59,004 nt of DNA from an uncultured Pseudomonadota bacterium (GTDB taxonomy: Bacteria > Pseudomonadota > Alphaproteobacteria > Rs-D84): positions 1 to 59,004 of the forward strand of contig CAMVAB010000001.1 in NCBI GenBank assembly GCA_947165335.1, read 5' to 3'. Below, piece after piece: positions 2,829 to 59,004 of the stretch. The notes beneath the pieces are model-generated. The model saw only the letters and a program-made list of their open reading frames with translations. It was not told the origin of the DNA and did no database searches. The first letter of the stretch is position 1; each line of letters starts with the position of its first letter. The position numbers were made by a program, and so were the translations under genes.

Positions 2829-4628
2829 TTATCCAACCAATTTCTTCCATAATGATTGTTTCTTTTGTGGTTTTTTAATTGGTTTACGATGACGTGGTGC
2901 AGTTGTTGTCACACGTTTTGCATCCGTATGTTGTGCGTTTTTCTTTTTCGCATCAGTGGATGGTTCGTGTGCATCCAAAACATCGTCTGTTTTGACTGTT
3001 TCAACAGCAACACGTTGTATCGAATATTGATCGATGTTCATCAAACTGTCATCGCCAACAATCACGATTTCTGTTTCGAATTCTTTTTCCATCGCTGCCA
3101 ATTCAGCGCGTTTTTGATTCAACAGATAAATCGCAACATCACTTGGAACCGTCATGATTATCTTTTGTGCTGGCTTTGCCAACAGTTTTTCTTGCAAGTG
3201 ACGGAACAAGATAATAGATGCAGTTTGAATAGATGGAACGACACCTGCGCCCATACAATGTGGACATACGACGTATGAAGATTCGATAAACGAAGAACGC
3301 AATCTTTGACGCGATAACATTAACACACCAAATGCGTTGATTTTCGCAACCTGGGTACGTGCACGATCGTGTTTCATAACTTCACGCATTTTTTGTTCCA
3401 ATTTGCGATTGTTCTTTTCTTCTTCCATATCGATAAAATCAATTGCAACAATACCTGCCAAATCACGCAAACGTAATTGTAATGCGATTTCTTCGGCTGC
3501 CTCTAAATTTGTATTCAAAGCGGTTTGTTCAATATCTTTTTCTTTGATAGCGCGTGAAGAGTTAACATCAATTGTCACCATGGCTTCTGTTTGATTGATA
3601 ACAATAGAACCACCAGATGGCAATACTACGTATGGTCCGTGTAACCCTTCGAGTTGTTTTTCAACACCGGCTTTGGTCATTAACGGAACAGCAGCATCTT
3701 TATATTGAACCAACTGTTTGCGTGGCGCTTTGCCATACATTTGTTGGAAATATGTTTTTGCTTCGTCATATGCCTCGCTACCTTGGACATACATAACATC
3801 GTCTTTGTCAGAAATAAAATCACGAACAACACGACGAAGTAATGAATCTTCGGTATGGATTGTGACAGGTGCCACAGATTCCAAAGTTGTTTTGCGAATA
3901 TCGTTCCAAAGAGATGTCAAATATTCGTAATCTTTTGCAATTTCTTCTGCGTTTGCATCTTGTGCAGCAGTTCTTAAAACAACAGTCATACCTTTTGGTA
4001 TTTTAAGTTCATGAAGAATTGTGCGCAATCTTGCACGTTCGGCCTTGTCAGAGATTTTCTTTGATATACCATAACTGTTGCGTTTTCTGGAATTAGGCAT
4101 TAACACAGCAAAACGGCCAGCCAATGACAAATATGTTGTCATGGACGCGCCTTTTTGTCCGCGTTCTTCCTTGACACCTTGGACCAACAAAATTTGCTTT
4201 GGTTTGATTACATCCTGAATTTTGAATTCATGTGCGCGTTTGATAAATTCTTTGTTATCTTCACCCGCGCTGTGATCATCATATTCAGCGATTTCATCTT
4301 CTTCTTCGTTTGGATCATCGTCATCATCAACGATGTTGGCATGAGCCAATTCCAATAATTTTTTCTTTTGTTCTGGGGTTACCTGATAATAATCAGGATG
4401 GATTTCAGAAAATGGTAAGAAACCATTTTTACCAGTTCCGTAATCTACGAACGCTGCCTGAAGCGACGGTTCAACACGAATAACCTTTGCCAGATAGATA
4501 TTACCCTTGATCTGAGGTTTTGTTGTTGTTTCTACGTCAAAATCAGACACACGATTTGTCGCGGAATCTACCACTACCACCCGTGTTTCTTCTGGATGAA
4601 CACCATCCACGTATATCTTTTTTGACAT
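2829..4628 (-). CDS. rne: Ribonuclease E/G family endoribonuclease (RNase E-like, short C-terminal tail)
   Basis: N-terminal S1 domain (IYLAKVIRVEPSLQAAFVDYG) with an acidic insertion, RNase E/G catalytic core and a basic C-terminal tail. A roughly 200-nt 5' UTR gap lies upstream. Confidence 0.85.
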   Translation of the reverse strand: MSKKIYVDGVHPEETRVVVVDSATNRVSDFDVETTTKPQIKGNIYLAKVIRVEPSLQAAFVDYGTGKNGFLPFSEIHPDYYQVTPEQKKKLLELAHANIVDDDDDPNEEEDEIAEYDDHSAGEDNKEFIKRAHEFKIQDVIKPKQILLVQGVKEERGQKGASMTTYLSLAGRFAVLMPNSRKRNSYGISKKISDKAERARLRTILHELKIPKGMTVVLRTAAQDANAEEIAKDYEYLTSLWNDIRKTTLESVAPVTIHTEDSLLRRVVRDFISDKDDVMYVQGSEAYDEAKTYFQQMYGKAPRKQLVQYKDAAVPLMTKAGVEKQLEGLHGPYVVLPSGGSIVINQTEAMVTIDVNSSRAIKEKDIEQTALNTNLEAAEEIALQLRLRDLAGIVAIDFIDMEEEKNNRKLEQKMREVMKHDRARTQVAKINAFGVLMLSRQRLRSSFIESSYVVCPHCMGAGVVPSIQTASIILFRHLQEKLLAKPAQKIIMTVPSDVAIYLLNQKRAELAAMEKEFETEIVIVGDDSLMNIDQYSIQRVAVETVKTDDVLDAHEPSTDAKKKNAQHTDAKRVTTTAPRHRKPIKKPQKKQSLWKKLVG

Positions 4629-4833
4629 TTAATAATCCTTTTGTGTTTGGGGCGTATAAAACAGACGCAACTCGTTCCTGTGGGGCAATCCCGCCCATGC
4701 CAAGGATGCACGCAACGATAATAAAAAGCGCGACTCGAATTACAGCAAAAAGTGACATAACAAACACTTTTTTACCCCGTTTTATACAACATCGTAAAGG
4801 ATAGCAAATGGCCCCATTAAAGGCAAGGTGTTT

Positions 4834-5859
4834 TTATTTTGAAACTTCTAATTTATGCTTTTTATGTGGCAATTTTATGTGCGGCATTTTTTGTTTGGCC
4901 TCTTCCAGCCATCTTTTCATACGCGCACGCAACCAACGTTCATAGATAAAGAACAATCCGCCAACCCCAATCAGAGGTAAAACATAATAAATTATTCTGT
5001 ATGCCAACAATGCACCGAAAATGTTTGCTTTATCAACACTTTCAGGCAATGCAACCATAAATATAGATTCAAAAACACCGATACCACCAGGTACCTGGCT
5101 GAAAACCCCAGCCACCATCGCTATCACATATAATCCAATAAATACACCAAATGGCATATCTATATATGGACTTATACAGAAATAAAGAACCAATCCCGCA
5201 CAAAGAGCATCCATTATTCCCAAGAATGTTTGAACAAGGGACATTCCAAAAGACGGTATGTGGAATTTTATTTCACCGATACGAATACTTTTATTGTAAA
5301 ACATGATTGATATTAAATAATACGCCAAAATAACAGACGCACACAAAATAAACAATCCGTTTACACCGAATGACGCCCCTGAACTCTGTGCGAACATGTC
5401 CTGAGGCACCAAGAAATAACCGATAACCGCTATTGCGGCATATCCAAGAAAGAAAGTAAAGCCAGAAAACGTTATCATCTTAATAATATCAGCCCCAGGG
5501 ACACGCCAACGTGTATATAACCGATATCTTATCGCGCCACCACTAACCACTGCATGACCGGCATTATTACTGATTGCGAACCCAAGCATCCCAGCCAACA
5601 TCCATTTCCACCAGGAAACTTTGCGGCCAACATAATCAAGTGCCAGATAATCATACAGAGACAAAGCAATATAACCGCACAAACAGGCAATAGAGGCAAA
5701 CACCAAGTTTACAAAAGGTATGTGCCACAATGCGCGCGCAATATCCATCAATGAATAATTACGCAGTTGCCAATAAAGCATACCTGCTGCAACACAGAAG
5801 AAGAAAAGTCCTGCATAACTGATTAATTTCTTAAAAAGACGCTTCGTTCTAACTGACAT
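4834..5859 (-). CDS. Polytopic membrane protein, lysylphosphatidylglycerol-synthase TM-region-like (UPF0104)
   Basis: 341 aa with about 8 hydrophobic helices and a basic C-terminus. The family assignment is from recall only. Confidence 0.5.
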   Translation of the reverse strand: MSVRTKRLFKKLISYAGLFFFCVAAGMLYWQLRNYSLMDIARALWHIPFVNLVFASIACLCGYIALSLYDYLALDYVGRKVSWWKWMLAGMLGFAISNNAGHAVVSGGAIRYRLYTRWRVPGADIIKMITFSGFTFFLGYAAIAVIGYFLVPQDMFAQSSGASFGVNGLFILCASVILAYYLISIMFYNKSIRIGEIKFHIPSFGMSLVQTFLGIMDALCAGLVLYFCISPYIDMPFGVFIGLYVIAMVAGVFSQVPGGIGVFESIFMVALPESVDKANIFGALLAYRIIYYVLPLIGVGGLFFIYERWLRARMKRWLEEAKQKMPHIKLPHKKHKLEVSK

Positions 5860-5914: not shown

Positions 5915-7672
5915 TTATTTCACAATTTCATGGAAAATCGTGGCCGGCAACGTACCACCTGTTATTTTAGAACCCATAGATTTATTGTCATCACGACCGA
6001 CCCATACACCCATCACATAATTTGGTGTTGCACCAACAAACCAAGCGTCTCTGTTATCGTTGCTGGTTCCTGTTTTTCCGCCGAACACGTTTTGTGTATA
6101 TGCGCGTTTACCAGTACCTTTTGTCACAACCTCGTACAACAACTCTTTCATGTATTCAACAGTTTGTGGTTGTAAAATTGTGATTTCTTCGGACGGATTA
6201 CGCGAATAAATAGTATGTCCCCCAGCATCTGTTATTTTAGTAATTGAATATGGATGAACCGATTTTCCATCATTCCAAATGACTGAATATATTGTAGTTA
6301 AATCCAGCAAACTCATTTCCGATGCGCCCAAAACGGTAGAATATTCGCGTTTTAAATTATTGCCGACCCCCAGACGTGCCGCCATTTTTAACACTGAATC
6401 TATACCGTATTCTTTTGTTAATTTTAAAGGTACCGAATTAACACTTTTTGCAAACGCGGTTGCCAAAGTTATCCCGCCATAATAACGTTCATCATAATTT
6501 TTAGGATTATAATCACCAATTGCAAACGGGGAATCATTCACATAAGATTCTGGGGTCATACCATTTTCCAATGCAACCAGATACACAACCGGCTTAAACG
6601 CGGAACCTGGTTGACGAAGTGCCAATGCACGGTTAAATTGGCTAACCTGATAATCATCACCACCAACCATTGCTTCGATTGCGCCATTTCTTGAAATCGC
6701 AACAATCGCACCTTGAAAATCACCTATATTGCCAGCCAGAGCCGAAACAGCACGTTTCTGCAATTGTGCATCTAATGTTGTATAAACATATAAATCTTGA
6801 TTTATTTCGCCAATTCTTGATTCTATTTCTTCACGAACAAAATCAGTCCAATAACGATATATATTTTTATCTATTTTTTGGTTGGATGCTTTTAATTGTT
6901 GTGCTGCCGCGCGTGCTTCATCCAAAGTTATATATTTTTGACGAACCATTTCAGCCAAAACAACTTTTGCACGTTTTATGTTTCGATCAGGGTTTTTAAT
7001 CGGACTGTACGATGTCGGTGCTTTTAACATAGCAGCAATTTGGGCAGATTCTGCAACACTCATTTCATTAGCAGCATGACCAAATAACAAAGTTGATGCA
7101 GCATCGATTCCACGCATACCACCAACCAGCGATATTCTGTTCATATACAAATCAAGAATTTGATTCTTAGAAAATCTGTTTTCAAGCCAACACGACAATA
7201 TTAATTCTTGGATTTTACGCGACATCTTTTTTTCACGCGACAAGAATATATTTTTAGCAGTTTGTTGGGTTATGGTTGATCCGCCAGCTGCGATTGAACC
7301 GCGAAATAAATTTACAACCAATGCACGCAAAGTTCCACGCAAAGAAATCGCACCATGTTCAAAAAATCTTTTGTCTTCGATTGCAATGATAGCCTGCCAC
7401 ACATGCGGGGGCAAAGATTCAACAGATACAGGCATTCCCATAATACGACCATCCGAACGCAATTCGCGACCATTTCTGTCTAAAAACACAATCGCAGGTT
7501 CACGGGTTTCATGTAATATAGAATCAAGTGATGGCATTTGTAAAAAAACAACCAAAACATATAAACCAACACACGCAACAACGACAAGGAATAAATTCAC
7601 AAAAAAGATTATCATACGCGTTTTAAACGAATAATGTTTTTCGTTCTTTCGCATATCTCTTTTGTTTTGCAA
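5915..7672 (-). CDS. Bifunctional class A penicillin-binding protein (glycosyltransferase + transpeptidase)
   Basis: GT51 motifs EDKRFFEHGA and RKIQE. Transpeptidase motifs SAFK, SVN and KTGT. N-terminal TM anchor. Confidence 0.85.
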   Translation of the reverse strand: MQNKRDMRKNEKHYSFKTRMIIFFVNLFLVVVACVGLYVLVVFLQMPSLDSILHETREPAIVFLDRNGRELRSDGRIMGMPVSVESLPPHVWQAIIAIEDKRFFEHGAISLRGTLRALVVNLFRGSIAAGGSTITQQTAKNIFLSREKKMSRKIQELILSCWLENRFSKNQILDLYMNRISLVGGMRGIDAASTLLFGHAANEMSVAESAQIAAMLKAPTSYSPIKNPDRNIKRAKVVLAEMVRQKYITLDEARAAAQQLKASNQKIDKNIYRYWTDFVREEIESRIGEINQDLYVYTTLDAQLQKRAVSALAGNIGDFQGAIVAISRNGAIEAMVGGDDYQVSQFNRALALRQPGSAFKPVVYLVALENGMTPESYVNDSPFAIGDYNPKNYDERYYGGITLATAFAKSVNSVPLKLTKEYGIDSVLKMAARLGVGNNLKREYSTVLGASEMSLLDLTTIYSVIWNDGKSVHPYSITKITDAGGHTIYSRNPSEEITILQPQTVEYMKELLYEVVTKGTGKRAYTQNVFGGKTGTSNDNRDAWFVGATPNYVMGVWVGRDDNKSMGSKITGGTLPATIFHEIVK

Positions 7673-7682
7673 TTTGCCCCCC

Positions 7683-9735
<2,053 letters not shown>

Positions 9736-34425: not shown

Positions 34426-34668
34426 CTAGATAGTATGCGAATTGGACGGGATAAATTTAGTAAAATCTTCGAGATTTGCACCAGTAGACGCTAATATTTT
34501 TGAAATACTGTTGGTTGACGGCCATCTGGGTTGACCTTGTTTAGACCAACGTTTGCTTTTATTAAATGTTGTTGGGTCCAGACCGCTACACTTTGCAAGT
34601 CCCGAACAAGACATATTGTGTTCCATAGCAAATTTTTCTATTGCCGACCAAACATCATCATGTGTCAT
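34426..34668 (-). CDS. CI/LexA-like repressor N-terminal HTH domain only (no S24 peptidase domain)
   Basis: ...SCSGLAKCSGLDPTTFNKSKRW...PRWPSTNSISKILASTG is typical of the N-terminus of alphaproteobacterial S24-family repressors. The ORF stops after about 80 aa. Confidence 0.6.
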   Translation of the reverse strand: MTHDDVWSAIEKFAMEHNMSCSGLAKCSGLDPTTFNKSKRWSKQGQPRWPSTNSISKILASTGANLEDFTKFIPSNSHTI

Positions 34669-34843
34669 AGTATTTTTCTCCTGTAACTGCATCAGTTTCC
34701 CAATTCAACATCCATATATTACGGCTTTTTCAAGCAAATTTTCATTTGTTTGTTTTCCTAGGTAAAAAGGCAGAAAAATATACAAAAAAATTTTTTTGAC
34801 AAAAATACTTGACAAATCGTATTTTATGTATTACATTTCGATT

Positions 34844-36108: not shown

Positions 36109-36435
36109 TTAAGAAAAACTGTAATATCTTTGTACATGAACAACGGTTCCAACGAAAGGTATTTGGTTTGAAAATTCTTTTACCTGTTTAGTTAAAACAC
36201 TGCTGCCTGTAAACAAAACACAAACTTCGCCATCCAATAAGAATTGTAATTGCAAACATTCTGTGCCGTCTTTTTGTTTTGAACGTCTTATTCTGTAATC
36301 GATAACTTTGATTTCGCGGTTAACAATTTCATCAAGACGCTTTTTATTCCCAGGCATAGGCGTTTGATCTTTTGCAAAAACCGAAAATTTTGGACATTCT
36401 GTATTTTTTATTTTTTCAATTTCATCAAATGTCAT
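36109..36435 (-). CDS. 108-aa ORF between TR and RT (candidate non-Avd DGR accessory protein)
   Basis: Intact ORF with a purine-rich stretch (AAAGAGAGAAAA) just upstream of the ATG. Predicted beta-rich and basic (KVIDYRIRRSKQKDG). No resemblance to the helical Avd. Confidence 0.5.
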   Translation of the reverse strand: MTFDEIEKIKNTECPKFSVFAKDQTPMPGNKKRLDEIVNREIKVIDYRIRRSKQKDGTECLQLQFLLDGEVCVLFTGSSVLTKQVKEFSNQIPFVGTVVHVQRYYSFS

Positions 36436-36460: not shown

Positions 36461-36513
36461 GGATATCCCGGACGTTCGCCACGATACAGAACAAACTACT
36501 AGTCCAGATATCC
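36461..36513 (-). other. Long hairpin in the TR-downstream spacer of the DGR RNA
   Basis: GGATATCCCGGAC...GTCCAGATATCC form a roughly 12-bp stem with one bulge. Confidence 0.5.
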
Positions 36514-36703
36514 CCTGCGTATTGTGTTTGATCCAAAGAAAAATAATTTTCCCGGACAGGTTACATCGTCCCACCTTTGATGTGAAAAGGTCTTGTCCAA
36601 ACAGATATCGTTGTCGTCGATACCTGAAAAGTGCCAATGCACTTTGTCCTGCAGGTTAGCCAAACTTTGATCCCTTTGATCTCTGTTGTACCTTTCCAAA
36701 GGA

Positions 36704-36838
36704 GCGACCGACCCGAAAAGCCCGACGCGCATAGCTTCGTTGTTCCGGGCGTTGTTGCCACAGTTGTTCGTGCAATTCGAAGCGCACGAGGCGGCGGACC
36801 CGTTGTCGTTGTTGAACACCCAAAGCGACGCCACGGGA
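36704..36838 (-). repeat. DGR template repeat (TR)
   Basis: 135 nt, GC-rich, non-coding (no start codon). 25 adenines in the sense strand, mostly in AAC codons. Matches VR1 and VR2 except at adenines. Confidence 0.92.
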
Positions 36839-37207
36839 AAAACCCCACGCCACACAACAGCCATCGCACAACCGATTACGACGATGCAACCCAGTTCCGT
36901 ATGGCGGAACCATTCCCAAAAGATTCATGGTGAAATCTTTTGATGATGTATTCTTGTGTTCAAACACATCATTAAAAGATGGTTCTCTCCCCCCCCGTGT
37001 GTGTGGGGGGGGAACCTATTGACCTTCTTTTATAAAGCAAAGGTTTTTCAGGCCGAAACAAAGAAGGTCAATTTCGGCCTGTCCCGCTTTACTGCGGGAC
37101 AGGCGATGTGGGGATTCTCCCCACACCCCTGTTTGCGGCATATCGTGTTTCACACGATATGCAAACCGTTCTGCCGTGCCGCGTGTATTCGCCCCGTTTC
37201 GTTCACA

Positions 37208-37675
37208 TCATTGTGCGACCGACCCGAAAAGCCCGACGCGCATAGCTTCGACGTACCGGGCGTAGTAGCCACAGTAGTACGTGCAACTCGAAGCGCACGA
37301 GGCGGCGGACCCGTAGTCGCCGTTGAACACCCAAAGCGACGCCACGGGATGAGTCATTTTACACCAACAATAACGTCCATATTTTTCACTGCCCTGAACA
37401 AGGTTGGTTTCCCCGTTGTTCGTATCAGTCAACTGCGATTCGTAATACCCCATCGATTTACCCTGGCCCGTATTTAAACACGCAGAAATACCGTATATCA
37501 TGCCGTATGGAAACGTCGCATTCCAAAGCCCTGCTGTCGCATCGTATGTCCCCCCAGCAGTCCCGGCAACCGTTGGATCCAATACCACCACCACAGAATT
37601 ATCAACCGCACACATCGTCGTCGCAAATGACGGTATCGTTATCATCATCATCAATGCTGTTATAATCCGTTTCAT
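37208..37675 (-). CDS. DGR variable protein 1 (155-aa secreted Cys-rich protein)
   Basis: Start MKRIITALMMM with an AAGGAAAG RBS and a signal peptide. C-terminus is YCWCK...SLWVFNGDYGSAASCASSCTYYCGYYARYVEAMRVGLFGSVAQ. Confidence 0.85.
   Translation of the reverse strand: MKRIITALMMMITIPSFATTMCAVDNSVVVVLDPTVAGTAGGTYDATAGLWNATFPYGMIYGISACLNTGQGKSMGYYESQLTDTNNGETNLVQGSEKYGRYCWCKMTHPVASLWVFNGDYGSAASCASSCTYYCGYYARYVEAMRVGLFGSVAQ
37215..37349 (-). repeat. DGR variable repeat 1 (VR1)
   Basis: 135 nt colinear with TR. 11 mismatches, all at TR adenines. Confidence 0.92.
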
Positions 37676-37769
37676 CTTTTCTTTCCTTTTGTTTTGCTTC
37701 TTCCCCGTCCGCTTCTGATTCTTCCCTTGGGGGGAATACTCGCGCAGCAAGAGAGGATAGAATCCCCTT

Positions 37770-38240
37770 TTACCACACCGATTCATACATCGCAGACCGG
37801 AACGTTGTATTCGTTTTAACCGCTGTCATACAATCGTTCGTGCAATTCGATGCACATGTTGCTGCATCCGTATAGGTATCTAAAAACATCCAATATGATG
37901 TTATCCCTGTTTCTGTTCCATACGAATATACGGGTTCCATTTTGCACCAACAATATTTGCCTTGGTCTACGGATGATGTGTATAAATTCGTTTGTGGGGT
38001 TGCGTATGTCCCGCTTATTCCATTACATGCTGCTATGCCTGTTACGCGTTTCGTTGTATTATTTCCATAATCAAAATCAACATACCATATTTTGCCATTG
38101 TTCGATGATGTCCCAGTCGTCCCGGCAATATTCTTTTTCAATATGCCAACATAAGTGTTGTTTTTCGCACACACCGTAACAGCATTTGCAATATCAATTC
38201 CAAATAAACATACAAAAAATAATATTAAAAATTTTTTCAT
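37770..38240 (-). CDS. Paralog of the DGR variable proteins with a decayed (non-TR-matching) VR region
   Basis: Signal peptide and YCWCK motif. C-terminus is ...TDAATCASNCTNDCMTAVKTNTTFRSAMYESVW. Only a 15-nt identical core (37836-37850) is shared with TR. Confidence 0.75.
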   Translation of the reverse strand: MKKFLILFFVCLFGIDIANAVTVCAKNNTYVGILKKNIAGTTGTSSNNGKIWYVDFDYGNNTTKRVTGIAACNGISGTYATPQTNLYTSSVDQGKYCWCKMEPVYSYGTETGITSYWMFLDTYTDAATCASNCTNDCMTAVKTNTTFRSAMYESVW

Positions 38241-38252
38241 GTTCCTTTCCTT

Positions 38253-39041
38253 TCACTCTGTTAACAGTTGCCACCCTGTAAACGAATATCCTGAACGCGA
38301 CGGCGGTGTTTGTGGCAAAACTATGTTTCCTTCGTAAAGACATGTGTTTGTCATCATAGTGTTTTCGCCGTCCGACCATGTCAAAGACACTGTTGGTGTT
38401 GGCAAATCAACACATGTATCACCCGGATTATTATCACAGCGCGTCGTTCGCGTGTATTTCGCATATGGTGATGTACAATTGCCGTTCGTCAATTCACCAA
38501 ATGTATTCGTATTTACTGCGACATCGTAATATCCATTTATACAATCACCCGCAACATACGATACGCAACTTCCCCCCGACAGATACCCATTCGTACATAA
38601 ATTAACCACATTCCCCATCAAAAATCCGTTATATACAGGGTCAAAATCATCCGGCAGCACAATTAACGAATATCCACCAATTTGACATATACCATCACCA
38701 GGCGCCGTAAATGTGGATTCTGTAATGCCAATATTATATGTGCCGTTCATACATGATCCCTGAGTAAACGATGTACAACTGCCACCGGTCAAATATCCGT
38801 CATCACACAAAGTGTGTGTCCCACCCATTACAAAACCATTATATATCGGTTCAAAATCATCCGGAATTTCAATTAATGTATATCCACCAAATTGACATAC
38901 ACCACCAACGGGTGAAACAAATGTAGAATCTATGACATTTGATGCAACGCTGTAACCATTTTGACATGTTGCAGACGCAAAAGCATCCATTGCAAATAAT
39001 TGCAATATAAATAATCTAAAAAATAATCTATACCTACTCAT
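38253..39041 (-). CDS. Secreted Cys-rich tandem-repeat protein with a C-terminal Flg_new repeat
   Basis: GGGGGAG RBS and signal peptide. Two repeats of about 70 aa (C.NG...C.GGY.LI..PDDF.P.YNGF.MG....LC..GYL.GGSC). Ends in GYSFTGWQLLTE. Confidence 0.7.
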   Translation of the reverse strand: MSRYRLFFRLFILQLFAMDAFASATCQNGYSVASNVIDSTFVSPVGGVCQFGGYTLIEIPDDFEPIYNGFVMGGTHTLCDDGYLTGGSCTSFTQGSCMNGTYNIGITESTFTAPGDGICQIGGYSLIVLPDDFDPVYNGFLMGNVVNLCTNGYLSGGSCVSYVAGDCINGYYDVAVNTNTFGELTNGNCTSPYAKYTRTTRCDNNPGDTCVDLPTPTVSLTWSDGENTMMTNTCLYEGNIVLPQTPPSRSGYSFTGWQLLTE

Positions 39042-39250
39042 TACTCCCCCACAAAACAACCACCGTAAATCGTTATGGTGGTTGGAGGTCAGTAGCTATA
39101 AAAACAGATATAGTGTGCTTATTCTATCTTTCGATATTATTCAGCATCCCTCCAACCAATATGTTGGAGGCATTTTTCGTCTGCTCTGCGACGCTGTTTT
39201 CCAATCAGGGCTACTGCACCCAGGCACAAGAACCCCTTGTGCTTAAGTCC

Positions 39251-50654: not shown

Positions 50655-51177
50655 AATATTTTTGGGGTGTTTTATCGTTGCATACCCTTTCATCGTTTTT
50701 TATGCGCTAAAACAAAATATCGCCGTTAAATTTATCGGCCTTATTTTGTTAACAGTGATTATTTTTTCGTATCTTCGCAACAGAAACAAATGTCTTTTTA
50801 TGACCGGATTACTGGTCGCCTTCATGGTTATATTGTTTAACCAAGAAATCTTTCTTAAAATCTATCCGGTGTTAATGAACGCATCTGTGTGTTCCGTCTT
50901 TGCCTTGTCTTTAAAAAAGACACCTCTTATCACACAATTTGCACAAAAGATGCAGAAAAAACCACTAAATGAAGAAACTGTCGTTTATACCCGCAGCGCA
51001 ACAGTTGCATGGGCAATATTCATGTTTTTAAACACTCTTGTTTCTTTGACAACTGTATTTATGTCAGATGAAATTTGGGTATTATATAACGGATTTATAT
51101 CTTATGTCTTGATTGGTATAATGATGTCTGCTGAATACATCTTTCGAAAGGTTAAACAACAATGTTCACACCAATAA
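50620..51177 (+). CDS. Integral membrane protein (ape-cluster-associated, COG4648-like)
   Basis: Five or six TM helices. Sits at the conserved position between the ACP and AMP-ligase genes. Confidence 0.5.
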   Translation: MQLKKLLTVTTKIFLGCFIVAYPFIVFYALKQNIAVKFIGLILLTVIIFSYLRNRNKCLFMTGLLVAFMVILFNQEIFLKIYPVLMNASVCSVFALSLKKTPLITQFAQKMQKKPLNEETVVYTRSATVAWAIFMFLNTLVSLTTVFMSDEIWVLYNGFISYVLIGIMMSAEYIFRKVKQQCSHQ

Positions 51178-52859
51178 ACCGCGTTTTTATTGAAACCATT
51201 GATAAAGACAGAATTGTTTTTTATAAGAACGAACAACCTGTATCTTTTGAAACATATATGAACGATGTCGCAAAATATGCCTGTTATTTTAACACAATAC
51301 AAAATGATAATGTTGTTATATATATCCCAAATGATTTATATTTGTTTTATGTATGTTTTATGGCAGCACTTCAAGCAGGCAAAGATGTTATTTTGCCAGC
51401 CTTGCTTACAGAACAAAATTCCAGACCTTTACTTGAAATGACAAATGTTTTAATTACTGACAAATTTGATTCTTTAAAAGGTTTTAATATTATAGATTTG
51501 AATTGCGGAAATAATATCAATTGGCAATTCAATGATATGTCTGACAGATTTTTATATTTCTTTACATCTGGGTCGACGGGCACCCCGAAACGCATCAAAA
51601 AACAATTCAAAATGCTTGCCGCCGAAGAAGATTTTCATGGACGAAATCAAAAACATTTGATTGAACAAAACCCAGTTATGATATCATCTGTTGCACCATA
51701 TCATATGTATGGGTTGCTTTGGCGATTTTTATTTCCATTAGCAAACGGTATTATATCTGATTTAGATATTGTTTTTACACCCGAAGAATTACAACATAAA
51801 CAATCTATATATGACAAAGTTTTATTTGCAACAACGCCTTCGTTTTTGGACGGCATAACCAGATATCAAAACCAATATTATTTTAGAAACAACTGTATTG
51901 GTCTTTATTCATCTGGCAGTTTATTAGATGCAAAAACATCAAACAATGCATATCAAATGTTTGGTGCATCCCCATACGAAATATTCGGCAGTACCGAAAC
52001 AGGTGGTGTTGCATCACGTCAACAAATAAACGGCCAAGAATGGACTATATTTACACCGGTAAAAGTCACATTGACAGAAAACAGTGAATTATTGATTGAA
52101 TCTGATTTTTCATGTGCAAACCCATATTTAATGTCCGACATTGTTGAAAAGACCGGCAACAATACTTTTATATTAAAGGGTCGCGGGGATCGCATGGTAA
52201 AAATTGCCGAAGAACGCGTATCGTTACCTGAAATGGAAGAAAAGCTTTGCGAATATAAATATATTGAAAAAAGTTATGTATCAACATTGTCTACAAAAGA
52301 CAGGACTATTATTTGTGCTGCAATAACATTAAATGATGACGGCAAAAATTATATTATCAAAAACGGCCGGCACCAATTCATAACTGAATTAAAACAATAT
52401 TTATTAAATTATTTTCCAAATGTTGTTCTGCCACGAAAAATCAGAATCGTTAATGCTATCCCCGTAAACACCCAGGGTAAATATATAAAATCAGATATCG
52501 CATCTATGTTCGAATCAAATGTTGCAGAACCAATAATGCAAAACATAACAAAAACAGATTCTAAATTTTCCGCGGATTTAATATTTTTAAAAGATTCTTC
52601 TTATTTTAATGGCCATTTCCCAGGGCATCCTATTTTACCTGGTGTTATACAAATGCATTTTGTTATGACATTTATCAAACAGTATTTTAACAAAGAAGCA
52701 ACAAATTATCATGTTTTGAAATTAAAGTTTTCAAATCTGATTTTGCCAGATACACAAATATATTTTGAATTGAATAAAATTGACGACAATGAATTTACAT
52801 TTGAATACAGCCACAATGGCAACAGTTGTTCAAAAGGCAAAATAGTCATAGAGGCATAA
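51162..52859 (+). CDS. AMP-dependent synthetase/ligase fused to a FabA/FabZ-like hotdog dehydratase
   Basis: FFTSGSTGTPKRI and GSTETGG adenylation motifs. The C-terminal roughly 120 aa carry GHFPGHPILPGV. Confidence 0.8.
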   Translation: MFTPINRVFIETIDKDRIVFYKNEQPVSFETYMNDVAKYACYFNTIQNDNVVIYIPNDLYLFYVCFMAALQAGKDVILPALLTEQNSRPLLEMTNVLITDKFDSLKGFNIIDLNCGNNINWQFNDMSDRFLYFFTSGSTGTPKRIKKQFKMLAAEEDFHGRNQKHLIEQNPVMISSVAPYHMYGLLWRFLFPLANGIISDLDIVFTPEELQHKQSIYDKVLFATTPSFLDGITRYQNQYYFRNNCIGLYSSGSLLDAKTSNNAYQMFGASPYEIFGSTETGGVASRQQINGQEWTIFTPVKVTLTENSELLIESDFSCANPYLMSDIVEKTGNNTFILKGRGDRMVKIAEERVSLPEMEEKLCEYKYIEKSYVSTLSTKDRTIICAAITLNDDGKNYIIKNGRHQFITELKQYLLNYFPNVVLPRKIRIVNAIPVNTQGKYIKSDIASMFESNVAEPIMQNITKTDSKFSADLIFLKDSSYFNGHFPGHPILPGVIQMHFVMTFIKQYFNKEATNYHVLKLKFSNLILPDTQIYFELNKIDDNEFTFEYSHNGNSCSKGKIVIEA

Positions 52860-52863
52860 AAAG

Positions 52864-53595
52864 ATGAAACCGGTTATAATTATTCCTTGTTTTAATCATG
52901 GCGATGCATTTGCGCCAGTGGCCGATAAATTAACCGAATTCAAAACACCTGTTATTGTCGTTGATGATGGCAGCGCTTCACAGCAATCAAAGAAAATCAA
53001 AAACATTTGTTCGGCGCACAATTTTATATACATAAAAAACAAAACAAATGGTGGCAAAGGTGCCGCTATGATTACTGGATTTCAATATGCCTTGAAACAA
53101 GGTTTTTCACATGCATTACAAATAGACGCAGATGGTCAACATGACATTCGCGATATACCATTATTTTTAAAAATCGCATTTTCACATCCAAATGATTTAA
53201 TTATTGGCAATCCTGTTTATGATGAATCTGCGCCACGCGCACGACTGGCTGGGCGAAAAATAACAAATTTTTGGGTTATGGTTGAAACATTTAATAAACA
53301 TATGCCAGACACAATGTGCGGGTTTCGTGTATATCCATTAAAAGCAGTTGAACCAATATTAGAAACTATCAAATTCAAACGTATGGGATTTGATATTGAA
53401 ATAATAGTCAAAGCATACAGAAACAAAATTAAAATTATTCCTGTGCCAACAAAAGTTATTTATCCCGAAAATGGGGTATCTCATTTCCATGCCATCAAAG
53501 ATAATTTTTATATCAGTTTGCTTCATGCGTATTTATGTTGTTTAATACCAGCATGGTTAACCAGGAGAATGTTTAGTCATGATAAAAATAAATAA
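52864..53595 (+). CDS. Family 2 glycosyltransferase
   Basis: IIIPCFNHG, VVDDGS and DADGQH motifs. Confidence 0.8.
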   Translation: MKPVIIIPCFNHGDAFAPVADKLTEFKTPVIVVDDGSASQQSKKIKNICSAHNFIYIKNKTNGGKGAAMITGFQYALKQGFSHALQIDADGQHDIRDIPLFLKIAFSHPNDLIIGNPVYDESAPRARLAGRKITNFWVMVETFNKHMPDTMCGFRVYPLKAVEPILETIKFKRMGFDIEIIVKAYRNKIKIIPVPTKVIYPENGVSHFHAIKDNFYISLLHAYLCCLIPAWLTRRMFSHDKNK

Positions 53596-54172
53596 GTTTT
53601 TATTTGTTATATCTTGTTTGTTTTCTGTTAATGCTTTTGCATACCAAATAACAGATAAAATGCCAGACACACTAAAAACATTTACAGATAATTTAAACAC
53701 TGTATCTGCAACATTCAAACAAACAAAAATATTGCCTGAATCTACGAAAAGTTTTATATCAAAAGGTTATATTAAATTTGTAAAAAATGTCGGCTTTACA
53801 TGGCATCAACAAAAACCAAGTGAAGAAATCTTTACATCGACGCTTACCACATATTGTGTTAATGGCGAAACAGAAGATTTGGATAAACTGCCGTATTTCT
53901 ACCGCATACAAACTATGATAGACAATATGTTAAATGGCGATATGTCTGAATTTTTATATGCGTTCAATGTAGATTATCGTGAACAGAAAGATTCATGGAC
54001 TTTGATAGCAACACCACGTTTAACGACCATTGCAGATATGATTCAAGATATAACAATGTACGGTACAAAAACTGATTTAACAAAAATAATCATGACATAT
54101 TATGATGGCACGATTGTTATTTTAGAATTCACACGTTTAACAAAAGAAATTGCTGATGAAATTGCTTGTTAA
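53579..54172 (+). CDS. LolA-like outer-membrane lipoprotein carrier protein
   Basis: Signal peptide, about 197 aa, at the conserved position before the exporter gene. Confidence 0.55.
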   Translation: MIKINKFLFVISCLFSVNAFAYQITDKMPDTLKTFTDNLNTVSATFKQTKILPESTKSFISKGYIKFVKNVGFTWHQQKPSEEIFTSTLTTYCVNGETEDLDKLPYFYRIQTMIDNMLNGDMSEFLYAFNVDYREQKDSWTLIATPRLTTIADMIQDITMYGTKTDLTKIIMTYYDGTIVILEFTRLTKEIADEIAC

Positions 54173-56291
54173 AAGATTTTTGTTTTGTTTGGTAATAATT
54201 ATTGGTGTTATTACGACGCTTGTGTTCAAAACACCCCTGCATACACAATCTAATTTAATGTCTTTGATAACATATACAAACGAACAACAATGGCCTGTTG
54301 ATAAAATATCAGGAAAATTTTCATCAGTTTTAAACATTGTTGTTGAATCGAGAGACGAAAAAATTGCGACCAGAACAGCAAATTCAATAATAAAAACATT
54401 AAACACTGATACTTTTGATACTCTAACCATTCAATCAAATAATTTTTCAATTAAAAATATAGCGAAAGATTTAGTTTTATATAAAAACAATTTATTAAGC
54501 ACACAAAACAAAACATTATTACAACATAATGAATCCAGAAAAATCGCAAACGCTGCTATTAAATATGTCGAAGAGTCTATGATACCACCACTTGTTTCAA
54601 TTAGTGATGATCCTTTTATGTTGTTATCTGATTATATAACGAATATAAATACAGGCAATTCAACATGGACATTGCATAACGGATTACTTTGGCAAAACAA
54701 AGATAGTGTTCATTATTTCATGATTCCTGTTGATGTTAATGTTGCTGATGCGTCACGCGCTGCAAAACAAATAAATAATCTGCGACATGAATTACAAAGT
54801 TCAGACCAAATCAAAATACACATCAGCGGAATCCCACTACATACCGCATTTATGGTTCAACGAAGCCAATTACAATTGGGTATATTGTCATTTTTGGCAA
54901 TATTAATGGCTATAGTTTTCAATTATTTATTATTTAAAAAATTATTCACACTTATCCCTGTACTAACTAGTTTATCAATTGGATTTCTTGGTGGAACCAT
55001 TGCGTTATTTTTGTGTTTTAATGCACCTCATATTTTAACATTTGTATTTGGAACGACTTTGATTGGGCTTGGCATAGATTATGCTTTTCATTTCATGACT
55101 GCGGCCACATTGAAAAACAGAAAACAAATATTTACCAACATGCGCCAATCGTTTTTGACAACACTTGTTTGCTTTTTACCGTTGTTATTTTCACAAATAA
55201 CCCTTTTGCAACAAATATCAGTATTTACAATTGTCGGTTTAACAACAATATATGTTGGATTAAAATTATTTATGCCAAACAAATTGAAATTGAATATAAA
55301 ACCGATAAAAACCAAATTGGTATTATCAAAAAAAACACGCACAATTATATTATCTATGATTACAGTCGCTATTGTTGCAACATTACCATTTGTAAAATCA
55401 GAAAATAATATGAACGAACTTTATCGTCCGAACCGCGACATCGCGGAACAGGACATATTTTTCCAAAAATTAAATAATTCAAAAGATTCTGCGATATTAT
55501 TGGTACGCGGAGATAACATAGAACAAATTCTTGAAACAGAAGAAAATATTAAAACAACAACTGACTTCTTTTCTATTGCAAGCGTTATACCATCCGTAAA
55601 AACACAAACTGAAAACCAGAAACTAGTCAAACAACTTTACGCACAACAATCTAAATATCTGAAACAAAAACTAGAATTACGTAAAACACCAACATTTGTT
55701 GAAAACGATTTTATAACCCCAGAAAATATAAAATCAGAATTTTTATCGAATTGGTTAAATAAAATGATTATCTATGATGATGGTCATGTTTATTCATTTG
55801 CACAAATTCCAGCAAATACAGATATAACCAACGAAAACGCAATTGTTGTATCACCATCACAGATTTTAACCAACAATATTCAACAATACAGCAATGAAAC
55901 ATATCGCCTGTTGTTAATATGTGGTTTATGTTTAATTGCTTTGTTATCAGTATTTTATAAAAAACGTGCAATTATTTATTTGATACCTTCTATACTTGCA
56001 ATATTACTATCAGTATCTATTCTAACATGGTTTGGTCAACCAATAACCTTTTTCCATATGTTAAGTTTCTTTATTGTGATTGGTCTTGGGCTTGATTACA
56101 CAATATTTAATATAAACGCGGATAACAACAAAGAAATGCGCCCTGTCCTATTTTCGTTCCTGACCAGTTTTGTTGGATTTGGAATGTTGGCATTTACATC
56201 GTTCTTTTTGATTAAATCAATGGGAATAACGTTGGGACTTGGGTTGGCATTATCGTATTTGATATCACTCTTTTTATTCAGAACAAAATGA
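54150..56291 (+). CDS. MMPL/RND-like exporter
   Basis: 713 aa with two blocks of TM helices, each preceded by a large loop. Confidence 0.7.
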   Translation: MLMKLLVKRFLFCLVIIIGVITTLVFKTPLHTQSNLMSLITYTNEQQWPVDKISGKFSSVLNIVVESRDEKIATRTANSIIKTLNTDTFDTLTIQSNNFSIKNIAKDLVLYKNNLLSTQNKTLLQHNESRKIANAAIKYVEESMIPPLVSISDDPFMLLSDYITNINTGNSTWTLHNGLLWQNKDSVHYFMIPVDVNVADASRAAKQINNLRHELQSSDQIKIHISGIPLHTAFMVQRSQLQLGILSFLAILMAIVFNYLLFKKLFTLIPVLTSLSIGFLGGTIALFLCFNAPHILTFVFGTTLIGLGIDYAFHFMTAATLKNRKQIFTNMRQSFLTTLVCFLPLLFSQITLLQQISVFTIVGLTTIYVGLKLFMPNKLKLNIKPIKTKLVLSKKTRTIILSMITVAIVATLPFVKSENNMNELYRPNRDIAEQDIFFQKLNNSKDSAILLVRGDNIEQILETEENIKTTTDFFSIASVIPSVKTQTENQKLVKQLYAQQSKYLKQKLELRKTPTFVENDFITPENIKSEFLSNWLNKMIIYDDGHVYSFAQIPANTDITNENAIVVSPSQILTNNIQQYSNETYRLLLICGLCLIALLSVFYKKRAIIYLIPSILAILLSVSILTWFGQPITFFHMLSFFIVIGLGLDYTIFNINADNNKEMRPVLFSFLTSFVGFGMLAFTSFFLIKSMGITLGLGLALSYLISLFLFRTK

Positions 56292-56780
56292 TATTTCATT
56301 TTGCGGTTCAATTGAACAAACACAAATTAAATAATCGCCTTTTTCATAAAAATAAGAATTTGCTTTTTCAGCATCTGCACCAAATTTAATGCGCGCTTCA
56401 TATTCCACAAAGTTTTTATAAAAATCTTGTTTATTTTTCGGTTTTGGCAAATTTAATAATTCGCTTTCACCAATAAAATCACGATTGATTGTTGTATTTT
56501 CAATATCAACACCCACAGGACTATCAGAAACCGCGACAATAACCCAATTATCTTTGTGCGCAATAGATATAAACCCAGATTTAATTATTGGTGCACTATT
56601 TTTATCTACGATAACATTTTCGCCACAAACATCTTTGACCTTTGCATGCGATAATAAATATTGTAATTTACGATTTTTGTTTGAAAATTTGCCGTATTGA
56701 AGCAGTTCTGCCCCGGATAATTTTTGTTCTAATTCAGGCACATTCTTTATATCTTGAATATTTGACATATATATTTTCAT
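56274..56780 (-). CDS. 4'-phosphopantetheinyl transferase (Sfp-type)
   Basis: VGVDIE and FVEYEARIK motifs. Confidence 0.7.
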   Translation of the reverse strand: MKIYMSNIQDIKNVPELEQKLSGAELLQYGKFSNKNRKLQYLLSHAKVKDVCGENVIVDKNSAPIIKSGFISIAHKDNWVIVAVSDSPVGVDIENTTINRDFIGESELLNLPKPKNKQDFYKNFVEYEARIKFGADAEKANSYFYEKGDYLICVCSIEPQNEISFCSE

Positions 56781-56818
56781 GGGATAAATTATAAAGGAAA
56801 AATATCAAAAGGCAACAA

Positions 56819-57736
56819 ATGAACAAATGGTATCAAATTCGCGAACAAAGCGCGGGCAATTTCCGCCTTGAATTGCTTTGGATCGTTTATAAAATATTTG
56901 GTATCAGATTTTTAAAGTTCATTTTATGGTTTGTCTGCCTGTTTATCGTCCCATTTGCGAAACCAGCAAGAGAAGCATCAAAAAAATATTCAAAAATATT
57001 GAACGCATATCAACGCGCACATGGGATGAAAGAAACCAGTATTTCAGCATTTTCGCATATTTATAATTTCGCTTGCAGTATATTGGATAAAATGTCGGCG
57101 AATAGTGATAAAAAAACAAAAATTAAATTCGCGGTTCATAAAAACACCGATTGGGATGCGTTCCAATCATGTTTAAATGACAACCAGGGCACATTTCTAA
57201 TATGTTCGCATCTTGGAAACATAGAAGCACTTTCCGCATTTTCTGGGGGTAAAAACAAACACATGCATGCATTTATGCAAATTTCCCAAAACGCCACATT
57301 TCACAAATTTATGACACGCCATAATGTCGCAAACAATACCACTATTTATCCAACCGAAGATATAAATATAGGTGTCGCATCCACAATGTATGATTTCTTA
57401 CAAAAAGGTGATTTAGTCATGATGGCTGGCGATCGCACTTCACCAAATGCACCGTCAAGATATGAAACTGTTCCTTTCTTGGGCGCCGATTGCCGTTTTC
57501 CAATTGGAACTTTCAAATTCGCAAAATCTATGTCGCACCCGATATTTGCAATATGCGTAATGAATGTGGCACACGAAAAATACGGTGTTTATGTCAAGAA
57601 ATTGGATGCCCAAACAATAAAGGAAACGATAATACAATATGCGACATTCCTTGAAAAACTGACCGTTAAATACCCAAAACAATGGTTTAATTTCTTTGAT
57701 TTTTTTGAATCAGGGACAAATCAGGCAGAAAATTAA
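56819..57736 (+). CDS. Lipid A biosynthesis (LpxL/HtrB-like) acyltransferase family protein
   Basis: N-terminal TM helix. Size and CSHLGNIE (HX4-type) region are consistent with the family. Confidence 0.6.
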   Translation: MNKWYQIREQSAGNFRLELLWIVYKIFGIRFLKFILWFVCLFIVPFAKPAREASKKYSKILNAYQRAHGMKETSISAFSHIYNFACSILDKMSANSDKKTKIKFAVHKNTDWDAFQSCLNDNQGTFLICSHLGNIEALSAFSGGKNKHMHAFMQISQNATFHKFMTRHNVANNTTIYPTEDINIGVASTMYDFLQKGDLVMMAGDRTSPNAPSRYETVPFLGADCRFPIGTFKFAKSMSHPIFAICVMNVAHEKYGVYVKKLDAQTIKETIIQYATFLEKLTVKYPKQWFNFFDFFESGTNQAEN

Positions 57737-58036: not shown

Positions 58037-58245
58037 CGGCTTAGGAAGGGACCGAAAACTGATTTGTTCCCCTCTGGCTAGAGGGGTGCCGGAACGGCGG
58101 GGTGTTGCAGGTTCTCCCCTTGGGGGGAGTACCGGCGCAGCCGGGGAGGGAGGATCCCCCGCCACAGGCGGGGAATAAAAAACACCCACTTTCGTGGGTG
58201 TTTGCGTGTTGCCGTGCCGCGTGTATTCGCCCCGTTTCGTTCACA

Positions 58246-59004
58246 TCATTGTGCGACCGACCCGAAAAGCCCGACGCGCATAGCCTCGCCGCCCCGGGCG
58301 CGGGAGCCACAGTAGCTCGCGCAATTCGAAGCGCACGAGGCGGCGGACCCGCGGTCGCCGTTGAACACCCAAAGCGACGATGATGCATTTTGTTTATTTC
58401 CATTTAATGGTTTATATCCCGTTGCCTTACACCAACAGTATTGGCCCGTGCTATTTTTATTATATGATGCATCGGTAACGTATAATTTTGACCATATCTC
58501 GCCAGTTGCTTCGTCATATGTTATTGTGCCATTACTGTATCTTGTAAATATATCGGCTGCTATTGCGCCTTTTTCCTGACCAGCCAACGATGTATAGTTT
58601 GCTAAGAATTCATATGGATCCATTTGGCCGCCAACGGCAGATTCTACATTAGCTACAAAATACGCCATACCCGCATCCAATGTTGGTTGGCAACTCGCTT
58701 CACCGTATACTGTGCCATAACTGAATTCTGTTTTCCATTCGTTGACCGCTAAATCGCTTAATGCCGCACTTTCCTGGGTACATACACTTGCCCCTTCAGA
58801 ATCAACAGTCCCATCGCCATATGCAGAACAATAATCTGTATTATTATTCCACCCATGTCCGTAAGAATGATTGCCATCTATCGATGCATTTAATGTGGAC
58901 AGGTCAAATCCACGCACACGCCAGCCGCCGAATGTATATCCGGTCTTTGTCATTGTATTTGTTGGTAATGTTATCACACTGTCGTATGTACATGTGTTCG
59001 CTGT
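58246..59004 (-). CDS. DGR variable protein 2 (Flg_new repeats + large Cys-containing domain + VR2; 5' end outside window)
   Basis: The frame stays open to the window edge (TANTCTYDSVITLPTNTMTKTGYTFGGW...). C-terminus is YCWCK...SLWVFNGDRGSAASCASNCASYCGSRARGGEAMRVGLFGSVAQ. Confidence 0.85.
   Translation of the reverse strand, partial: TANTCTYDSVITLPTNTMTKTGYTFGGWRVRGFDLSTLNASIDGNHSYGHGWNNNTDYCSAYGDGTVDSEGASVCTQESAALSDLAVNEWKTEFSYGTVYGEASCQPTLDAGMAYFVANVESAVGGQMDPYEFLANYTSLAGQEKGAIAADIFTRYSNGTITYDEATGEIWSKLYVTDASYNKNSTGQYCWCKATGYKPLNGNKQNASSSLWVFNGDRGSAASCASNCASYCGSRARGGEAMRVGLFGSVAQ
58253..58379 (-). repeat. DGR variable repeat 2 (VR2), remote from TR
   Basis: 127 nt colinear with TR 36704-36830. 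16 mismatches, all at TR adenines. Confidence 0.9.

Follow-up and report, generated by a model that had tools for sequence, protein, structure and literature searches.

A diversity-generating retroelement of an uncultured alphaproteobacterium probably varies a helix face of a disulfide-stapled binding domain

Can a diversity-generating retroelement (DGR) act on a scaffold other than the C-type-lectin fold, which is found in all solved DGR variable proteins (PMC8144416, PMC6328139)? The question is raised by a 59,004-nucleotide stretch of DNA (hereafter the window) from an uncultured bacterium of the alphaproteobacterial lineage Rs-D84 (assembly GCA_947165335.1, contig CAMVAB010000001.1, positions 1 to 59,004). 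The minus strand of the window carries a reverse transcriptase (RT), a template repeat (TR) and two variable repeats, VR1 in a small Cys-rich protein (target 1) and VR2 in a remote second protein (target 2). An earlier note on this sequence had described target 1 as unlike the Mtd/TvpA and FGE/DUF1566 types of target. We consider it likely that this DGR varies one face of a helix, and the adjacent turn, of a disulfide-stapled, exported alpha/beta binding domain.

Read 5' to 3' on the minus strand, the cassette consists of genes for a 268-aa protein (39059-38253) and a 156-aa paralogue of target 1 (38240-37770), the 155-aa open reading frame (ORF) of target 1 (37675-37208), the TR (36838-36704), a 108-aa accessory ORF (36435-36109) and the RT (36096-35038). 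The RT has 352 aa, matches Pfam RVT_1 (E = 9e-13) and phrog_1423 (E = 8e-101), and aligns over its full length with Bordetella phage Brt (31% identity, 317 aa, E = 9e-53). Its ORF is intact, with IGNLTSQ, of the DGR type [I/L]GxxxSQ, at residue 193 and the catalytic YCDD at 225.

Repeat alignment identified a 127-nt core common to the TR (36704-36830), VR1 (37215-37341) and VR2 (58253-58379), all on the minus strand. The match between TR and VR1 continues for 8 nt upstream of the core, to 36838 and 37349, giving repeats of 36704-36838 and 37215-37349. Within the core, VR1 differs from the TR at 11 positions and VR2 at 16, and all 27 of these 27 mismatches fall at the 25 template adenines (chance roughly (25/127)^27), with none at a template C, G or T in 2 x 127 nt. 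The changes are 7 A>T and 4 A>G in VR1 and 11 A>G, 3 A>C and 2 A>T in VR2, and the two VRs are not identical to each other. Target 1 sits 377 nt from the TR and VR2 lies 21.4 kb from it; both VRs terminate 4 nt short of the stop codon. Because the differences between TR and VRs are confined to adenines and the RT is Brt-like with both IGNLTSQ and YCDD, it is essentially certain that the locus is a bona fide DGR with one adjacent and one remote target.

The TR core, which encodes ...SLWVFNNDNGSAASCASNCTNNCGNNARNNEAMRVGLFGSVAP, contains ten AAY codons (nine AAC and one AAT, all Asn). Each of these can yield 15 amino acids and never a stop, and four more codons (D120, T132, E143 and M145) are partly variable. 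The computed repertoire is 10^14.1 protein variants with zero stop codons. By position in target 1, the AAY residues occupy the turn that follows the final strand (118, 119 and 121) and a helix (130, 133, 134, 137, 138, 141 and 142) of the predicted structure described below. As a side observation, the GC content of the TR and VRs is 61-72% (TR 61%), compared to 37% for the window and 30-32% for the RT and accessory genes; the GC-rich repeats in a GC-poor genome therefore indicate a template design kept against genome composition. It should also be noted that a 121-aa open frame (36499-36864, minus strand) encloses the TR and resembles the C-terminus of the target (E = 4e-19 to the hidden Markov model (HMM) of the family). 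This frame is a by-product of the template rather than a gene; gene-calling programs may report it as one.

Target 1 (37208-37675, minus strand) is predicted to be secreted, with a signal peptide at ~1-19 and the domain at ~36-153. Its N-terminus reads MKRIITALMMMITIPSFA followed by TTMCA..., with signal cleavage predicted between the two. The ORF list offered an alternative 192-aa version from an upstream ATG. Since all of more than 50 homologues begin MKK or MKR, and a Shine-Dalgarno sequence, AAAGGAAAG, is present 6-8 nt before the ATG at 37675, that ATG is the true start. A length of about 155 aa including a signal peptide is what the earlier note had proposed, and its placement of the VR in the last 45 residues or so also agrees with the TR match, which spans residues ~110-155. 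The motifs that it listed were likewise found: YCWCK at 102-106, just upstream of the VR, then SLWVFNGD and EAMRVGLFGSVAQ. Its count of four invariant cysteines in the VR has to be corrected, as there are three (C127, C131 and C135), with two more in YCWCK. Signal-like N-termini occur throughout the homologues of the family; together with the cysteine content, they suggest that target 1 and the other domain proteins are exported.

In target 2 (58246-59004, minus strand), the 3' part present in the window comprises a Flg_new fragment and a domain that matches the family HMM (E = 8e-25) at positions 43-83 and 93-155; the two segments are separated by an insertion of ~58 aa that is predicted to be helical. 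Target 2 thus carries the entire domain and not only its last 70 aa. The ORF leaves the window at its end, and its full length was taken from protein homologues only (closest P0201). These have 290-375 aa and consist of a signal peptide, a single Flg_new repeat and the domain, suggesting that target 2 is probably ~300-375 aa long with one Flg_new repeat. The module and the Flg_new sequence that the earlier note saw here are therefore both present, and its description of a much larger protein was overstated.

To what fold does this domain belong? Target 1, its paralogue, target 2 and 48 aligned homologues were scanned against Pfam, NCBIfam and PHROGs with no match above noise, and none of these proteins matched FGE-sulfatase, DUF1566/DUF823, Fib_succ_major, Lectin_C or Mtd at E<=1. 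None of 52 homologues of ~155 aa has a Pfam domain. Comparison of the family profile with PDB sequences returned nothing relevant, only a chance match to GDP-fucose synthetase (E = 0.22), and hhalign gave a probability of 0.2% for a relationship between the family and Mtd. A META domain (PF03724) was considered and rejected: its matches (15.9 and 20.1 bits, cut-off 24), found in 1 of the 48 small-family members and in the wider-family protein P0064, were below threshold, were limited to the N-terminal sheet part and had no Foldseek support. An Ig-fold target was also rejected, as the VR is predicted to be helical and no Ig or FN3 Pfam match was found. The Ig-fold exceptions once proposed among DGRs were later re-interpreted and are disputed (PMC8144416, PMC6328139).

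Structures were predicted with AlphaFold2, using the 48-sequence alignment for target 1 and a separate 23-sequence alignment for target 2, and secondary structure was assigned with DSSP. The target 1 model has a predicted local distance difference test score (pLDDT) of 90-97 over residues 31-150 (core ~95), and shows six strands within 50-120 followed by helices at 124-141 and 143-151. The target 2 model (pLDDT 86) has the same core, with strands at 89-106, 189-199 and 212-217 and helices at 221-238 and 240-247, plus an extra four-helix insertion at 111-174. In both models, the VR corresponds to the last strand, the next turn and the two C-terminal helices. The lectin fold has paired beta1 and beta5 strands, two perpendicular helices after beta1, and a beta2-3-4 sheet that bears the VR (PMC6328139); the VR occupies the beta3-beta5 region and its invariant end is on beta5 (PMC6328139). 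In the order of their secondary-structure elements, both models depart from this core topology: the strands all come early, and a pair of helices closes the chain.

A structure comparison with C-type-lectin-fold (CLec) variable proteins and an HMM search, of the kinds that the earlier note had recommended, were both carried out, the latter with the family profile. Foldseek searches with the two models against 350,542 PDB chains gave best E-values of 0.48 and 2.1 (template modelling (TM) score <=0.2), and the best E-value against BFVD was 0.57. There was no solved DGR variable protein, lectin-fold domain, defensin or toxin among the matches listed. The top Foldseek matches, to rotavirus VP8*, were rejected as noise (TM ~0.13, root-mean-square deviation >12 A). 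The HMM search returned 1,617 clusters at E<=1e-3, with no standard CLec or FGE domain among the 48 members scanned. Together with the hhalign result, these data agree with the earlier view that the targets are of neither the Mtd/TvpA nor the FGE/DUF1566 type, and a non-lectin predicted fold is well supported by the models.

Sequence variability in the family points to the same arrangement. Entropy in the small-protein family peaks (at least 2.8 bits) at positions 118, 119, 121, 126, 130, 133, 134, 137, 138, 141, 142 and 143, which are the ten AAY positions of the window TR plus 126 and 143. Along residues 124-143 the period of variability is 85-95 degrees per residue, which is helix-like, and along 50-67 it is 165 degrees, which is strand-like. 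The small family and the wider one, with 253 domain instances, both show these two periods. Projection onto a helical wheel places C127, C131 and C135 within 0-200 degrees, together with the conserved small residues 128, 129, 132 and 136, and puts positions 126, 130, 133, 134, 137 and 141 in the opposite arc, at 240-340 degrees.

The six core cysteines (66, 103, 105, 127, 131 and 135) are present in 232 of the 253 domain instances. Paired losses were seen for 66 and 127 (4 instances), 103 and 131 (2) and 105 and 135 (1). We propose that the helix is probably stapled through C127, C131 and C135 to C66, C103 and C105 of the sheet by disulfides. The pattern tentatively suggests a CxC-strand/CxxxC-helix staple of the cysteine-stabilised alpha/beta (CS-alpha/beta) type with a third bond added. 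A seventh cysteine, C22 (codon 37610-37612), is nearly invariant in the mature small proteins and lies 3-4 residues past the predicted cleavage site, between A and TTMCA; it could be a free thiol or form an intermolecular link. A lipoprotein role for this N-terminal Cys was rejected, as the residues leading up to it, [TVS]-[TS]-[MVL]-C, are not those of a lipobox, and sites of the A-x-A type lie ahead of it.

According to the explanation that we favor, the Brt-like RT, probably together with the 108-aa accessory protein, would reverse-transcribe TR RNA, with template adenines copied at random, and the cDNA would replace the 3' ends of target 1 (377 nt away) and target 2 (21 kb away). The scaffold would be a previously undescribed ~115-aa extracytoplasmic alpha/beta domain, not a C-type lectin, in which an antiparallel beta-sheet precedes two C-terminal helices. 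Variable residues would lie on the turn and on the side of the first helix that points outward, with C127, C131 and C135 on the opposite face, and disulfides would hold the fold rigid as the helix face varies. The element would be chromosomal, in an uncultured alphaproteobacterium of the rumen or gut. Proteins of the family combine the domain with surface repeats of the Flg_new (InlB B-repeat) type, and giant ones carry it in tandem; by context and analogy, it is most likely an exported binding module, such as the tip of an adhesin or receptor, with a specificity that the DGR varies.

Several points weigh against this explanation. AlphaFold2 could be confidently wrong for a segment rich in Cys, Ala and Ser, and Foldseek can miss the very divergent C-type-lectin variants that the field expects (PMC8144416). 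Residue exposure and disulfides were deduced from periodicity and motif logic rather than from coordinates. The disulfide map is weak because single cysteine losses are about as frequent as paired ones (127 alone in 5 instances, 66 alone in 4), and C22, the seventh cysteine of the mature small proteins, falls outside it. Finally, the candidate target-recognition hairpins described below are ~50 nt from the end of each VR, outside the range of 4-34 bp between hairpin and VR in phage DGRs (PMC3240598).

The main rival is that the domain is a cryptic lectin: a divergent, minimised C-type-lectin variant hidden from AlphaFold2 and Foldseek, as AvpA was until it was solved. We regard this as unlikely. 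It has precedent on its side, as all DGR variable proteins solved so far have this fold, and VR domains without assignment are expected in the largest survey to be further variants of it (PMC8144416, PMC6328139). Furthermore, the low-probability hhalign alignment (only 0.2%) pairs SLWVF...GLFGS weakly with CLWTW...ALFGG of Mtd. However, a pair of helices closes the chain in both of the independent, high-confidence models, which have no beta5 and no helices between the first strands, and the helical period of VR variability is derived from sequence alone. The Foldseek matches listed contain no lectin fold, as noted above, and no lectin-type Pfam match was found in the 48 members.

A somewhat less probable alternative is that the small proteins are not adhesin tips but released, diversified effectors (toxin- or bacteriocin-like proteins, or decoys) built on a defensin-like motif. 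Mature target 1 would suit such a role, being ~136 aa long and acidic (pI 4.8) and lacking a recognisable anchor, lipobox or transmembrane segment; its CxC/CxxxC layout recalls the staples of scorpion toxins and defensins. This is difficult to reconcile with target 2, in which the domain is fused to surface repeats of the Flg_new type, and with the tandem arrays in giant proteins typical of adhesins, and Foldseek detected no similarity to defensins or toxins. In addition, the target is always found in a cassette with a Flg_new protein and a paralogue, which suggests an assembled surface complex. That the VRs were diversified formerly and the element is now dead is very improbable: the accessory protein is not a recognisable Avd and the hairpins are unusually far from the VRs, but the RT has an intact ORF that retains the catalytic motifs, the lack of any non-adenine mismatch in 2 x 127 nt indicates no drift since the last homing, and the cassette, including the accessory gene, is kept at 57-69% identity elsewhere, again with adenine-only differences.

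Display of variable residues on a disulfide-stapled helix can be compared to several known systems. As in Mtd, TvpA, TaqVP of Thermus and the nanoarchaeal AvpA, the VR is at the extreme C-terminus of an apparently exported protein. The use of AAY codons to give ~10^14 variants without stops, the interleaving of invariant with variable residues, the last ~10 invariant residues that overlap the 3' homing region, the single TR for several targets and the fusion of the domain to adhesion-type repeats are all shared with lectin-fold targets. Unlike these, the domain shows no similarity to them in sequence or predicted structure, has only ~115 aa and apparently three disulfides, and has its variable residues predicted on a beta-turn and an alpha-helix face instead of beta3-beta5, with a helical C-terminus in place of beta5. 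The sequence and predicted secondary structure of the domain fit a CxC on a strand (C103 and C105) and a CxxxC on a helix (C131 and C135), as in CS-alpha/beta proteins (defensins and scorpion toxins), and co-loss, from 3 of 253 instances, tentatively suggests the canonical i/j, i+4/j+2 pairing. In contrast to these proteins, the order along the chain is strand and then helix, the domain has three times their size, with a six-stranded sheet and a predicted third staple (C66-C127), and no Foldseek match to a defensin or toxin was found.

Affibody (Z-domain) binders offer an analogy only: they too have about ten randomised positions on a rigid helix face and a very large library, whereas the present domain is natural, would be randomised in vivo by a retroelement, and would have its helix held by a beta-sheet and disulfides rather than in a three-helix bundle. 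At the level of the whole element, the Bordetella BPP-1 DGR (mtd-avd-TR-brt) is similar in its homologous RT (31% identity), its TR/VR pair, the mutagenesis of adenines and the hairpin with a GRNA loop that lies downstream of the VR. The element in the window differs in its order (target-TR-accessory-RT), its unrelated 108-aa accessory, its chromosomal rather than phage-borne location and its remote second target.

Literature searches for reports of a DGR target that is non-lectin, Cys-rich or helical found none. On balance, we lean slightly towards the view that this is the first DGR variable scaffold that is clearly not a C-type lectin, combining a disulfide-stapled domain, helix-face display, a non-Avd accessory and a conserved five-gene surface module. 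If so, massive natural sequence variation does not depend on the lectin fold, and DGR hypermutation has found a structurally different partner in a helix face made rigid by disulfides. The domain would then provide a compact, natural helix-display scaffold of ~115 aa for engineering and display technology. It would also define a large unannotated family, with more than 1,600 clusters at 50% identity and no Pfam or NCBIfam model, that is probably central to the attachment of reduced-genome gut and rumen Alphaproteobacteria to their partners, and the cassette would point to a new DGR accessory protein.

The extent of the family was determined by an exhaustive profile search over representative clusters (clustered at 50% identity), in which 554 of the 1,617 clusters had E<=1e-10. 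Members are mostly ~130-180 aa long. The unit of ~115 aa (profile ~36-153) occurs in 1-7 copies in proteins of 130-6218 aa, with 2-7 copies in proteins of 250-6218 aa. The idea of a portable tip, put forward in the earlier note, thus stands as regards portability, with a unit of ~115 aa in place of the 70 aa that it had suggested; the ligand-binding role that it gave the module can be proposed by analogy. The domain is often undiversified, or arranged in tandem in giant proteins. Two giants, P0053 (4750 aa) and P0054 (6218 aa), have 5-7 copies, which in P0053 are combined with six Flg_new repeats and an endonuclease I domain at the C-terminus, an unusual mix for a surface protein. Named sources of the family are the uncultured rumen proteobacteria RUG653 and RUG12675, an "uncultured Rickettsiales" metagenome-assembled genome (MAG) and "Alphaproteobacteria bacterium" MAGs.

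Related loci were sought with a 12-sequence subset of the family, and the metagenome scan gave 6 loci. Adenine-only TR/VR pairs are present at five loci: the window, L003 (RUG12675), L005 (the Rickettsiales MAG), L010 and L019. All five TRs encode one frame, S.WVF ... C.SNC.NNCGNN..NN...R...FGS. Four of the five have AAY codons at the same ten residues, with NNDNG at the N-terminal turn; the TR of L005 has RNANS at the turn, with AAY at 118 and none at 119 or 121. In RUG12675, the TR of L003 matches only its own VR, and four further family members have no TR match. These four are ordinary undiversified paralogues. The DGR evidently recruited a pre-existing domain. No relative was found among IMG/VR contigs. 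A phage origin was rejected on this ground and because the surroundings are chromosomal (PriA, tRNAs and metabolic genes).

At L003 and L019 the whole module is kept at 56-69% identity, from the Flg_new/Cys-rich protein through the paralogue, target, TR and 108-aa gene to the RT, with the Flg_new gene of L019 in the equivalent place. Module flanks differ, with PriA at the window and peptidase M23 and enolase at L019. The upstream pair of Flg_new/Cys-rich protein and paralogue is found at 37770-39059 (minus strand) in the window, 4474-5776 at L003 and 6682-7970 at L019 (56-57% identity). In the window, the undiversified paralogue (37770-38240, minus strand; 156 aa) matches the family HMM at positions 1-154 (E = 2e-37) and contains YCWCKM ... 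TCASNCTNDC; it shows no TR similarity and has 56% identity to the syntenic L003 gene. The gene for the 268-aa Cys-rich repeat protein (38253-39059, minus strand), which looks co-transcribed, has an internal 108-nt repeat at 210-nt spacing, encodes a terminal Flg_new repeat (sub-threshold, E = 5e-4) and has 57% identity to its syntenic L003 gene. This arrangement hints that the target and the two upstream gene products may form a multi-protein surface assembly.

Between the TR and the RT, the 108-aa accessory gene (36109-36435, minus strand) ends 12 nt upstream of the RT start and is in the equivalent place at L003 and L019. Its family comprises 62 clusters, almost all of exactly 108 aa, with 49-92% identity and no Pfam domain; the pI is 8.8 in the window protein. 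The protein has no match in Pfam, NCBIfam, PHROGs or PDB and none to HRDC, and hhalign found no relationship between its family and bAvd (probability 0.07%), so that it is not detectably an Avd. Avd accessory proteins occur in ~74% of DGRs and are not universal. DGRs without avd have been reported by Wu et al., and the missing Avd therefore does not exclude the element from the DGRs. The 108-aa family may represent a new type of DGR accessory, restricted to these Alphaproteobacteria. Just downstream of the RT, a gene for a small Cro/C1-type helix-turn-helix (HTH) protein (34426-34692, minus strand; HTH_26 sub-threshold, E = 4e-4) might regulate the cassette or be unrelated to it.

Hairpins with a GRNA loop are target-recognition elements of DGRs, according to Guo et al. 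(PMC3240598). A perfect 11-bp inverted repeat with a 3-nt loop (37138-37162), located 53 nt 3' of VR1, is a candidate for such a hairpin. The equivalent position of target 2, 50 nt 3' of VR2, has a perfect 10-bp inverted repeat (58180-58203) whose loop on the coding strand, GAAA, agrees with the 5'-GRNA consensus of DGR target hairpins (PMC3240598). The ~44-48 nt directly after VR1 and VR2 are common to both and are not found in the TR, and the hairpin comes next. A comparable inverted repeat 3' of the TR was looked for and not found.

Two further observations concern the surroundings of the targets. A GC-rich element of ~49 nt with the palindrome CCCCTTGGGGGG is present in two copies with 76% identity, one upstream of target 1 (37719-37767) and one downstream of target 2 (58112-58160); the chance expectation for the palindrome is 0.02. 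Adjoining target 2, genes at 51162-57736 resemble a locus for lipid biosynthesis and export of the aryl-polyene type, with an AMP-ligase fused to an ApeI/FabA-like dehydratase, a family-2 glycosyltransferase, a LolA-like protein, an MMPL-like membrane protein and a lipid A-type acyltransferase.

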